This document shows, piece by piece, positions 12,214-49,857 of a DNA stretch of 51,453 nucleotides (its first letter is position 1; each line of letters opens with the position of its first letter). Where the stretch lies: NCBI GenBank assembly GCA_040755315.1, contig JBFMBF010000006.1, positions 1-51,453 of the forward strand, given 5' to 3'. The DNA comes from Candidatus Hadarchaeota archaeon (GTDB lineage: Archaea; Hadarchaeota; Hadarchaeia; Hadarchaeales; Hadarchaeaceae). The translations under genes were made by a program, and so were the position numbers. Under the pieces are notes generated by a model. That model was given only the letters and a program-made list of their open reading frames with translations, did not search any database and had not been told where the DNA came from.

Positions 12214-12301
12214 TGGAGCCGCCGGCGGGAATCGAACCCGCGACCTACGCCTTTTTGTGCGAGATACCAAGGCGTCGCTCTACCGACTGAGCCACGGCGG
12301 C
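12214..12301 (-). tRNA. tRNA-Thr(GGT) with 12-nt intron at 37/38 (12253-12264)
   Basis: GCCGCCG/CGGCGGC acceptor, GGTTCGATTCC T-loop, ACGCC-TT-GGT-A[TCTCGCACAAAA]A-GGCGT, encoded CCA; 76 nt after splicing. Confidence 0.93.
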
Positions 12302-45380: not shown

Positions 45381-45506
45381 TTAATAATCTGGCTCTTTCT
45401 TCGAAAGCAAACATTCTCCGTCTGAGTAAAAGTCGCATTCTTCACAGCATCCGTTTGTATCCTTGCAGTCCTCAAACATATAGCATTTGTCACAGCATCT
45501 AGGCAT
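45381..45506 (-). CDS. Small cysteine-rich protein (41 aa, 8 Cys; not in ORF track)
   Basis: MPRCCDKCYMFEDCKDTNGCCEECDFYSDGECLLSKKEPDY*; GGTGA SD and a BRE-TATA (CGAAAAGCTTATAA) upstream. Confidence 0.75.
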   Translation of the reverse strand: MPRCCDKCYMFEDCKDTNGCCEECDFYSDGECLLSKKEPDY

Positions 45507-45656
45507 TATTCATCACCGAGACCTGCAAGGCAACTTCGCTTTTAAAATTTTTTATTTTTTTATAAGCTTTTCGGGCACGCATTTTTCTGAACAAAAATAC
45601 TCCAGATACGGCGGGAAATATGAATTAAGGGAAAAAACTTGGAAATCCTTCAAAAA

Positions 45657-45670
45657 GAAAGCTTTTTATG
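45657..45670 (+). promoter_or_regulatory. Putative BRE-TATA for the structured RNA
   Basis: GAAAGCTTTTTATG located ~23 nt before the start of the terminal helix at 45692. Confidence 0.5.
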
Positions 45671-45691: not shown

Positions 45692-45973
45692 TGCGTCGAG
45701 GGGTCCTACCGGAAGGGTCTCCTAGAGTTGACCTTGGTGGATCTCACTGACAGGGGAACTCGAGGGCTGGCCAGCTCTCGTGTGTCTCCATGCAGCCGGC
45801 GGTCAAGGTTGGCTTGAAAGCCTTCGACTGATCTTGGCGCGGAAAGTCCGCAAGGATAATCCGCACAATCCGTGATGGATTGGAGCGGCGCGGTCTGGCG
45901 GGCTGCCCAAAAGGTGGTTCAGACGGGCTTCGTCGACCTTGGTCATAGAAGTCCGGGGCCTCACCTCGGCGCA
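45692..45973 (+). ncRNA. Unclassified structured ncRNA closed by a perfect BHB motif; predicted 255-nt circle 45708-45962
   Basis: Outer helix TGCGTCGAGG/CCTCGGCGCA, central GGTC/GGCC, bulges CTA and TCA, inner CCGGA/TCCGG; several internal hairpins with G-U pairs; GC-rich island in AT-rich flanks. Confidence 0.8.
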
Positions 45974-46010
45974 CCCTTATAAATTTTAAAGTCAATATCT
46001 TTTGGTCGTT

Positions 46011-46900: not shown

Positions 46901-47722
46901 TTATGCTTGTGCTGCGGCGGTGCCCATTGCAGCGAGCTGCCACGCCCTAGTCAACTTCAGGAGACCGCGAGCCACCGATGTCGGCGGGGCCCACCAAGAA
47001 CTCCTGACCCTCTCAGGTGAGGAGTCTAGCACGGAGAACGACTCGATGCGGTCTGGATCTACTGGGACTGAAACCATGCGAGTTTCCGGGTTCAGGCTCA
47101 TCGGCGCTAGGAGGAGGCCTCGCCCGACCCTTAGCTCGGAGAGGAGGCAGATTTTTTCTGCCTTTTTAATCTTGATGGATTTCCCGGACTCCACACTAAA
47201 CCCCGCTTGGGGCTCGCGCATGTACTCAGTTATAAAATCAGTTATCTCGCCCTGCAGTTCATCTAGAGCGGCTGAATCGCCCCACCATGCTTCCCAGGGG
47301 ATTGAGTCCAGCGGGACAACTATGTCAAACCCTAGGTCTCCGGAATACTTCACCCATGGCTCCGAAACTCCGGCCTCTTCAAGCGCTTTCACTACTTTCG
47401 CTGTCACAAGCTTGACGAACTCAATCCCTCCGACATTTGCACGAACTGTCCACACGAGGTCCCGACCAACCGGTTTTGAGAAATCAGCACCGTCGTAGTG
47501 CCAGAAAGAGCAGTAGAATGCCGATGCACCCACGCCAACGGCTTTTTCCAGCTCGTTTGCAGTTCCAAATGAAATCGGATGCCTTGAGCCGTTATCACCG
47601 AAATATCTTTGCACACTCCCAGTTTTGCTGTTGTAGATTGCACACTCTCGAAATCCTCCGCTTACACTAGAGCTCGCGAAATCGACAATCATATCTTTCA
47701 CATGTTGGCGCTGGTAGTACAT
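46901..47722 (-). CDS. Archaeo-eukaryotic primase (PriS/LigD-Pol)-like protein with degenerate catalytic motifs
   Basis: VKYSGDLGFDIVVP (compare K.SG..GFH), LLLAPMSLNPETRMVSVPV (compare R.PYSL..KT..VSVP), GRDLVWTVR in place of DxD. Confidence 0.65.
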   Translation of the reverse strand: MYYQRQHVKDMIVDFASSSVSGGFRECAIYNSKTGSVQRYFGDNGSRHPISFGTANELEKAVGVGASAFYCSFWHYDGADFSKPVGRDLVWTVRANVGGIEFVKLVTAKVVKALEEAGVSEPWVKYSGDLGFDIVVPLDSIPWEAWWGDSAALDELQGEITDFITEYMREPQAGFSVESGKSIKIKKAEKICLLSELRVGRGLLLAPMSLNPETRMVSVPVDPDRIESFSVLDSSPERVRSSWWAPPTSVARGLLKLTRAWQLAAMGTAAAQA

Positions 47723-47790: not shown

Positions 47791-47909
47791 CTGGTTAGAG
47801 TAACAAGCCCAATTGACGTCCCTGCGCCACCCCCTTGCTTCTACTGGAGCTATTTAACTATCTTATCATTTTTATTTATGTTACATATACTATACAAATA
47901 GTGATAGAA

Positions 47910-48275
47910 ATGATGTTAGAAGAAAAAGATAAATGGTGGATTGTAGGTTTTATAGAAAGCAAAGGGGTTTTTACAAAAAACAAGATTAAAATAAGGCAAA
48001 AAACAGAAAAAGGAGATAAAAAATACGAGTACACTAATCCTGCTTTCTACCTGGTTAGCAAGGACATCTCTGCACTGGAAATCATGAGTGAGCTTCTAGG
48101 GCTTGGACAGATCAAAAAACACGGCCCGATATCCCATTTAGAGGTGCGCAGGAAAGGCGAAACTATTCGGCTGGCAGAGTTCCTCAAAGACAATTTCAAG
48201 TCCGAAATTAGGCGCCAGCAGTTCGAGAGGTGGCGGCAGATGGTGCTCCAGTGGAAGGGAAGGGGTAGAGGTTGA
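47910..48275 (+). CDS. Single-motif LAGLIDADG-fold protein, probably nuclease-dead
   Basis: WWIVGFIESKGVF (LAGLIDADG helix with Lys at the acidic position), P.F.L...D...LE.....LG.G.I, F..W C-terminus. Confidence 0.7.
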   Translation: MMLEEKDKWWIVGFIESKGVFTKNKIKIRQKTEKGDKKYEYTNPAFYLVSKDISALEIMSELLGLGQIKKHGPISHLEVRRKGETIRLAEFLKDNFKSEIRRQQFERWRQMVLQWKGRGRG

Positions 48276-48345: not shown

Positions 48346-49857
48346 TTGATGGAGATGTCAACGCCACTGATTTCCGTTGAGGCCGTGCCGAAGCTGAAGT
48401 ACTTCTTCGGCAGACAGAGCGAGATAAGTCAAATAAAGGAATTCATGGAGTCAGACACGCACAGGGTCTTGGCTTTGCGCGGCATGGCAGGAGTCGGAAA
48501 GACCGCGCTAATCTCTAAAATGATTGAAAATTACGGTGGCGGAAGGAGCATCGTCTACGTGAAGGTGTACCCGTACAGCACTTTGGGCGGCACCCTCTCG
48601 AGGATTGCCGCGTTTCTTGAAAAACTCGGCAGGAAAAAGCTCGCCAACTACCTTTCGGAGAGGAAGGAAAATTTGGAGCTCGAGGGGTTCCTCCTCGCGC
48701 TGCAGGAAGATCTAATGGGAACCGGCGCGCTTGTCGTAATAGACGATTTGCACTACGCGAGAGATGAAATAACAAAAATCCTCGCGCCCCTCATGGACGT
48801 GCTCGACGCCACAGACGCCAAGGTTGTCATTGCCGGCAGGGTAATCCCTCACTTCTACGACAAGCGAGACATACTGGTTCGGAGGCGGCTGAAGGAAGTG
48901 GTACTCGGGGGCTTGGACGAAAAGAGCGCGTGCGAGCTCCTTACTCACAGAGGGATTGAGGAGAAGTACCACGATAAGATTTACTCTTTGACCCAGGGGC
49001 ACCCACTAATGCTCGAGCTGGCGAAGCCGGACACGAGCGGGGACGCTGCGGAGTTCGTCGAGAGGGAAATTTGGGAGCCGCTGGGCGACGTGGACAAGAA
49101 GACCCTAGGGATAGCTTCGGTTTTCAGGATGCCGTTCCCGCTGGACGCCATAAGGGCGGAATCCGAAGAGATGTCATTGAAAAGGCTCACGGAAAAGTTG
49201 CTTCTAAAGGAAGTGGACGGGAACTTTGAGGTTCACGAGATGCTGAGGGCGATGATATACAATAAGCTCACCGTGGAGGAAAAGGTCGGCTACCACAGGT
49301 TCGCGGCAGAATTCTACATCAAGACCGGAATTGACGTTTCTCTGATTGAAGCGATTTATCACCTGACAAAAGGTTACCGTCAGCAGCAGGCGGCCGCGAT
49401 AGCGATAGAGAATGCTGAGCGGCTTGTCCGCGCGGGCTATGGCAGAGCACTTCTTGAAGAGGTATCCATGCTTGAGGAGGGCGAGGTGGCTGAATATTGG
49501 CCATATGTGCTGATTCTAAGGGGAGATTTGCTGTCGAACGCTGGCCAGCTTAATGAGGCGAGGCAGCAGTATGAGTTGTGCACAGAGTACACGGAGACAA
49601 CTGCGCCGAAGGGTGGCAGGGAAGTTTTCTCCTACCTCTGGTTCGGCGTTTCGAGGGAGTTTGCGAGGGCCAGAGCATTGGCGCACTTCCGGCTTGGGGC
49701 GACTCTAGTCAAGATGGGCAACAACGCCGCCGCATGGGAAGCCTACTCCCAGAGCCTCCAGCTATTCAAAGAGCTTGGGGCCGCGGAGGCGGGCGACGCG
49801 GAGCGGGCGCTTAAAGAACTTGAGAGCCAAGGATGGCCGGGAGGGAAGAAGGAATGA
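48346..49857 (+). CDS. STAND-class (NB-ARC/MalT-like) P-loop NTPase with TPR-like C-terminus
   Basis: FFGRQSE, GMAGVGKT, VVIDD, GHPLML, helical C-terminal repeats. Confidence 0.85.
   Translation: MMEMSTPLISVEAVPKLKYFFGRQSEISQIKEFMESDTHRVLALRGMAGVGKTALISKMIENYGGGRSIVYVKVYPYSTLGGTLSRIAAFLEKLGRKKLANYLSERKENLELEGFLLALQEDLMGTGALVVIDDLHYARDEITKILAPLMDVLDATDAKVVIAGRVIPHFYDKRDILVRRRLKEVVLGGLDEKSACELLTHRGIEEKYHDKIYSLTQGHPLMLELAKPDTSGDAAEFVEREIWEPLGDVDKKTLGIASVFRMPFPLDAIRAESEEMSLKRLTEKLLLKEVDGNFEVHEMLRAMIYNKLTVEEKVGYHRFAAEFYIKTGIDVSLIEAIYHLTKGYRQQQAAAIAIENAERLVRAGYGRALLEEVSMLEEGEVAEYWPYVLILRGDLLSNAGQLNEARQQYELCTEYTETTAPKGGREVFSYLWFGVSREFARARALAHFRLGATLVKMGNNAAAWEAYSQSLQLFKELGAAEAGDAERALKELESQGWPGGKKE

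Follow-up and report, generated by a model that had tools for sequence, protein, structure and literature searches.

The closest described case to the gene reported here is the circular signal recognition particle (SRP) RNA of Thermoproteus tenax. According to the passages of PMC4731332 that deal with it, this RNA has a free-standing gene whose short leader and trailer form a bulge-helix-bulge (BHB), the tRNA splicing endonuclease EndA cuts the precursor, the ligase RtcB has been proposed to close it, and the junction comes to lie in a hairpin that forms only after closure. Stable circles are also released from the BHB-bearing terminal processing stems of pre-16S and pre-23S rRNAs, and in the case of mature circular 23S rRNA the circle may be the working form (PMC12918454, in its passages on rRNA circles). 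Archaeal BHB introns–for example, the box C/D intron of tRNA-Trp and the intron in the 5' untranslated region of HVO_1309–use the same splice motif and enzymes, and their inner piece is circularised (PMC7714728, in its passages on these introns). Here we describe a non-coding RNA gene at positions 45692-45973 of a 51,453-nt contig (JBFMBF010000006.1) from a Candidatus Hadarchaeota archaeon. We call this whole contig the window; it is contig C6 of genome G000 in our set. The gene has the same layout as that of the Thermoproteus SRP RNA and probably the same maturation route, but it specifies a different RNA, which is probably a circle of about 255 nt. To our knowledge, very few structured RNA families are known in archaea beyond rRNA, tRNA, SRP RNA, RNase P RNA and guide RNAs. 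In the literature we found a single dedicated BHB-circle gene, that of the rearranged SRP RNA; the present RNA would be the second, and would show that the enzymes of tRNA splicing also mature circular RNAs from genes dedicated to them.

As far as the passages cited above describe these systems, the Hadarchaeota RNA differs from each of them. Unlike the T. tenax SRP RNA it has no helix-8 motif and no Rfam match, it coexists with a normal SRP RNA encoded elsewhere in the genome, and its gene is dispensable in some genera; the EndA of this genome also looks like a short single-subunit type, unlike the T. tenax heterotetramer. Unlike the rRNA circles of PMC12918454, the predicted product is 255 nt long, is non-ribosomal and has no 23S match. 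Unlike the BHB introns, it has no host RNA (the exons would be only about 16 and 11-25 nt), and the conserved part is the inner piece, with no box C and no open reading frame (ORF). Large structured RNAs with a scaffold role or no known one, such as OLE, ROOL, GOLLD and raiA, resemble it in having a multi-domain fold, GNRA-type loops and a possible self-pairing loop, but the present RNA is archaeal, BHB-closed and without a match to the Rfam families.

The terminal BHB is under selection, as covariation among homologs shows. A first-pass annotation of the window, made from its letters alone, had described two complementary arms with 3-nt bulges, and these are present exactly where it placed them (Table 1), forming a canonical BHB with a 4-bp central helix, two 3-nt bulges and flanking helices. 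We compared this structure in an alignment (A3) of 34 rows, comprising 30 of the 32 genomes found with a covariance model (see below) and four other records; A3 omits G030 (a near duplicate), G023 (too divergent) and a relic in G019. Across the BHB, 99.5% of 440 cells are paired, and 7 of the 13 pairs, including all four in the central helix, show two-sided changes. None of 500 shuffles matched this covariation, and slid control pairings pair at only 36-56%. The strict motif is found in 27 of the 34 rows, the complete central helix in 32, and the first inner pair in all 34, while the third base of the bulge is a purine in 29/34 and 33/34 rows for the two bulges. The 5-bp inner helix of the first-pass annotation is correct for the window but does not hold as a rule, being perfect in only a few homologs: 26 rows have an inner helix of at least four pairs, mostly with a 1-nt bulge, and the usual form is one pair, then the 1-nt bulge, then three or four pairs.

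It is conservation, rather than shape alone, that establishes the BHB. When we scanned the genome for BHB-shaped pairings (G-U allowed, outer helix of at least 7 bp, inner helix of at least 3 bp) we found 388, among which this site ranks second by number of Watson-Crick pairs (17 of 19); because there are so many such pairings, the shape by itself is only modestly beyond chance. The BHB is the predicted main conformer of 26 of the 34 precursors at 37 °C and of 27 at 60 °C. In the window's own precursor the BHB register is minor at 37 °C (P = 0.08), where a competing register wins, and major at 60 °C (P = 0.72). Elsewhere in the genome, an equally strong BHB-shaped pairing at G000:C11:30038 (+) encloses a short TFS-like ORF; it is probably a chance pairing, because its 5' arm abuts a TATA box.

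Covariation extends to the interior of the RNA. The 282-nt plus strand folds better than 200 of 200 shuffles (z = -3.9), and the minus strand folds less well (z = -2.2, with 9 of 200 shuffles doing as well). RNAalifold applied to a plain MAFFT alignment of 20 sequences gave 90 pairs, 39 of them with two-sided changes; a model-fitted alignment of 27 sequences, whose figures lean high, has 96.3% of its 2413 cells paired and two-sided changes in 52 of the 90 pairs. The fold that this covariation shows is, for the predicted circle, a three-way junction bearing a long hairpin (domain 1) and a domain with a four-way junction (domain 2). We found no covarying pseudoknot. The apical loop of domain 1 reads GGCC in 33 of 34 rows and AGCU in one, both self-complementary. 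The exceptional sequence (L022:1399-1684) is a double change that no other site of the RNA mirrors, and this single event may be taken only as a lead towards a self-pairing loop.

The gene is a free-standing one with its own promoter. The first-pass annotation had also reported a transcription factor B recognition element (BRE) and TATA box ahead of the 5' arm, and we find them at 45655-45670. A TATA box at -32 to -28 is present in 32 of 35 homologs, and BRE and TATA together in 28 of 35, against a background of 0.27% among 20,000 random genome positions. TTTT follows within 16 nt of the RNA gene in 32 of the 35, and sequence conservation begins and stops with the terminal helix. A coding role is rejected by stop codons in all three frames of the excised piece, and by its length, which among homologs runs from 247 to 270 nt in every phase, with none conserved modulo 3. 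Nor is the element an intron of a tRNA, rRNA or mRNA, as the first-pass annotation had argued: the promoter lies directly before the stem and the T tract directly after it, and there is no tRNA or rRNA there. Housekeeping genes, whose order is conserved, surround it. A previously unlisted 41-codon Cys-rich ORF (45381-45506, minus strand) reads away from the RNA promoter and is conserved also in relatives without the RNA.

Table 1. Features of the RNA gene and its predicted product (window coordinates).
Feature	Position	Strand	Remarks
BRE	45655-45662	+	just upstream of 5' arm
TATA box	45663-45670	+	just upstream of 5' arm
Precursor RNA, 282 nt	45692-45973	+	conservation limits; covariance-model matches span whole length; start inferred from promoter spacing
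5' arm of BHB	45692-45713	+	predicted cut after 45707
BHB outer helix	45692-45701/45964-45973	+	
BHB central helix	45702-45705/45957-45960	+	
BHB bulges	45706-45708 and 45961-45963	+	
BHB inner helix	45709-45713/45952-45956	+	
Predicted 255-nt excised RNA, with 45962 joined to 45708	45708-45962	+	inferred from BHB cut rule
Segment able to re-pair with 45955-45961	45715-45721	+	circular folding and pairing counts
Unpaired CUAG in central junction	45722-45725	+	33/34 homologs
Domain 1, long hairpin	45725-45815	+	conserved, covarying fold
Nearly invariant internal loop of domain 1	45738-45749 with 45793-45802	+	
Self-complementary apical GGCC of domain 1	45769-45772	+	
Domain 2, helix into four-way junction	45821-45948	+	conserved, covarying fold
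Hairpin A, mostly GNRA loop	45837-45864	+	GNRA in 25/34 rows as parsed
Hairpin B	45866-45882	+	
Rod C	45886-45935	+	two head-to-head copies of G-U-rich helix motif, 33/34
3' arm of BHB	45952-45973	+	predicted cut after 45962
T-rich tract, likely terminator	45974-45990	+	TTTT conserved downstream in homologs

The RNA is a real and undescribed family, new by fold. Neither it nor three divergent homologs have an Rfam match at the gathering score, nor at E ≤ 10 beyond noise, and five circularly permuted profiles match no SRP RNA, RNase P RNA, 5S rRNA, 23S rRNA or group I intron of the lineage. The earlier judgement by eye that it was not SRP RNA, RNase P RNA or 5S rRNA is borne out, and intact copies of all three are present elsewhere in the genome. 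Using sequence patterns for known RNAs, we found the SRP helix-8 loop motif in 0 of 34 homologs (and no match to RF01857 at E ≤ 10), the RNase P CR-I, CR-II and CR-V patterns in 0 of 34 (and no match to RF00373 at E ≤ 10), and, against a box C/D guide RNA, box C in 0 of 34; no single column carries the box D tetramer in more than 20 of the 34. Box H/ACA-type K-turn hairpins ending in ACA were not seen by eye, in the absence of a formal search. A 23S fragment was rejected as a candidate because a relative carrying the RNA has a complete 23S gene. The features of a mobile-element RNA (omega, bridge or viral) are likewise missing: the gene is single-copy with housekeeping neighbors, and we found no true match in viral, phage and plasmid sets. 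Full-text literature searches turned up no description of the RNA, the supplements (where a motif list might include it) and most subscription papers being outside their scope.

We found homologs in one family of Hadarchaeota genomes, and nowhere else. Strong BLAST matches were present in 21 of 61 genomes, and with a covariance model 32 of the 66 Hadarchaeota genomes proved to have one full-length copy each–G000 and 31 of the 45 other genomes of its family, but none of the 20 in five other families. A second covariance model added no intact copy among the 34 negative and four outside genomes. By covariance model the RNA is also absent from 340 genomes of three other archaeal phyla (151, 38 and 151), in searches that used stricter filters above 40 genomes and had no positive control inside the runs. 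Among the matches listed, the named records with the motif are Hadarchaeota, Hadarchaeum or Hadesarchaea. Three further homologs came from metagenomes, among at least 119 stretches matching a loose pattern; of the matches listed for that pattern, most are due to chance. A pattern for the predicted circle junction, which fits one spacing only, matched 0 stretches in a collection of metagenome contigs; as these are DNA, that result does not bear on the circle. A contig titled Bathyarchaeota (L113) carries the RNA within the Hadarchaeota gene order and is probably mis-binned. Many of the surveyed Hadarchaeota genomes are incomplete, and we counted a loss as real where the syntenic interval was assembled; by this rule the RNA is missing from G010, G012, G024, G028, G029, G032 and G068, and G019 has a decayed relic of the gene. 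Weak covariance-model matches in G012, G024 and G028 lie inside coding sequence and were rejected, and no additional copies came to light in synteny searches around the ACT, glycosylase and primase-like genes. The gene is single-copy, vertically inherited, limited to one family of Hadarchaeota, and dispensable in part of that family.

We propose the following account of its maturation and role, which as a whole we consider somewhat more probable than not. The promoter would drive a precursor of about 285 nt (282 nt in the window), whose ends fold into the canonical BHB shown by covariation. From the established enzymology, the tRNA splicing endonuclease would cut after 45707 and 45962, and RtcB would close the inner 255 nt into a circle, leaving the short ends to form a throw-away hairpin. 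The first-pass annotation had named this EndA and RtcB route, and both enzymes are indeed encoded in the genome, in one copy each; the EndA has ~180-218 amino acids and a single catalytic domain. Many of the genome's tRNA calls contain introns. By its length, the EndA seems to resemble the narrow-specificity homotetramer type, as judged from the length class in Table 1 of PMC6379350, though a second subunit may have escaped the search. Cutting is well supported, the precursor being very probably an EndA substrate; a lasting circle is the probable end product. A tRNA gene within the window (12214-12301, minus strand) has a short intron in its anticodon loop.

Cutting may do more than release the ends. 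Circular folding of the alignment predicts a helix between 45715-45721 and 45955-45961, in which 89.9% of cells are paired and 4 of 6 pairs show two-sided changes. The 3' strand freed from the central helix would plausibly re-pair in this way, so that the ends stay together and a hairpin caps the junction, a step with moderate support. The corresponding helix of G023 is a permanent one, an indication that a closed three-way junction is what matters. The circle might act in trans as a long-lived ribonucleoprotein (RNP) scaffold, with predicted protein-binding sites at the invariant internal loop and at the G-U-rich rod with its two-fold symmetry, and with the palindromic apical loop perhaps allowing copies of the RNA to pair; closure would confer stability, not activity. 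The role of a stable protein-binding scaffold is a guess, and we hold it, jointly with the protein-site and loop-pairing proposals, as tentative. We give about the same guarded credence to a more general possibility, that this is a new archaeal RNP whose gene exists solely to make a closed RNA of new fold, and in which splicing frees the capping strand and so switches on a function without known counterpart; the RNA may then be a scaffold, a self-assembling oligomer or a ribozyme.

Several observations weigh against our account. No partner protein emerged among the candidates examined (TROVE, and the glycosylase and primase-like neighbors): the genome, which is 86.6% complete, has no match to a TROVE protein (the Y RNA partner Ro60), and the presence of the two neighbors does not track that of the RNA. 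Seven of the 34 rows depart from the strict BHB, and the homologs are related, so that covariation counts are not independent events. The evidence for the junction helix is weaker than that for the BHB, because 9-24 of 500 shuffles reach its covariation measures; at 37 °C its predicted probability exceeds 0.5 in 20 of the 34 circles, at 60 °C in 11 of them, and in the window's own circle it is 0.02-0.03. Most genomes of two genera lack the gene or have it in decayed form. Finally, the syntenic homolog in G023 (L191, 66 bits) retains the fold with a fixed terminal stem and bulges of 1-2 nt, and since it does so without a canonical BHB, closure of the circle may be unneeded for function.

The L191 homolog also speaks for the alternative that survives best, in which the working RNA is the linear uncut transcript, closed by its terminal stem, with the BHB as a turnover or off switch under the control of EndA. 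The outer helix is conserved in sequence beyond what a disposable stem needs (8 invariant columns), and at 37 °C the competing pairing dominates 4 of the 34 precursors. However, BHB-cut inner pieces in archaea are normally ligated, according to the passages of PMC7714728 on this point. Moreover, in two small trees (the 23S tree being based on the 3' part) both affected genera nest among BHB-bearing lineages, with moderate support (66-91), and three of the four genomes in the genus of L191 lack the gene; this suggests that its BHB-less state is secondary decay. We regard a working linear form as unlikely. It is quite unlikely, too, that the circle is an intermediate, reopened elsewhere into a circularly permuted linear RNA. 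Such reopening is known for archaeal pre-rRNA, and a permuted 23S rRNA is reported in PMC7758197, but the Hadarchaeota RNA shows neither a tRNA-like nor an evident second cut site, and none of the genome's other RNAs is matched by the permuted profiles.

An origin by domestication of a group I ribozyme, which would have gained a BHB and lost catalysis, seems improbable. A route of this kind has been proposed (as cited in a passage of PMC6125680), the lineage has group I introns in its 23S genes, and by eye seven consecutive bases of domain 1 are identical to the Q element of the intron in this genome, with P-, R- and S-like stretches following in order. On the other side, RF00028 detects that intron (27 bits) and does not detect the present RNA at E ≤ 10, the profile of the RNA against introns is not significant (best E-value 0.18, and none in a second comparison), there is no covarying P3/P7 pseudoknot, and the would-be P4 has two fixed mismatches. 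The 23S intron itself lies in G000:C10 (L037:128-541), is ~410 nt long, is inserted near position 1931, and has, besides its P, Q, R and S elements, a LAGLIDADG stretch that has decayed. The 23S introns of G023 and G037 are ~860 nt long, contain ORFs, and are inserted a few bases earlier. Hadarchaeota do not appear in the passage of PMC6125680 that holds its intron table.

It is very improbable that the RNA acts at a nearby replication origin together with the neighboring primase-like protein (46901-47722, minus strand). The primase-like gene is at most about 3 kb away wherever both share a contig, and origin-box-like sequences can be seen by eye at about 47826-47852 and 48245-48268; but the proximity follows from shared gene order, the protein is present in 46 of 66 genomes of the phylum, including 7 of 8 in a genus mostly without the RNA and 7 of 9 in a family without it, and an exact origin-box search gave no site there. 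A reduced or permuted paralog of RNase P RNA or SRP RNA, which might be suggested by the likeness (by eye) of the junction-helix segments to the halves of RNase P P4 and by the four-way junction of domain 2, is already largely refuted by the intact genes elsewhere, the lack of matches to either model or to the permuted profiles, and the absence of the characteristic patterns from all 34 homologs.

The preferred reading, a BHB-processed circle, makes the RNA directly testable, because it gives exact junction coordinates, a natural variant without the BHB, and natural losses for profiling of partners. Hadarchaeota are highly expressed in the Illumina and Nanopore RNA data described in PMC12918454, so a search for reads across the circle junction is feasible.

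Beyond the RNA gene, the interval 47820-48275 is possibly a replication origin with a domesticated endonuclease-fold protein. Two oppositely oriented origin-box-like sequences flank an AT-rich stretch there and overlap a 146-codon ORF, which has weak LAGLIDADG similarity (E-value 9e-4) and is conserved also in another family. Between this putative origin and the tyrosyl-tRNA synthetase gene lies a gene for a STAND-type ATPase with TPR repeats (48346-49857, plus strand).
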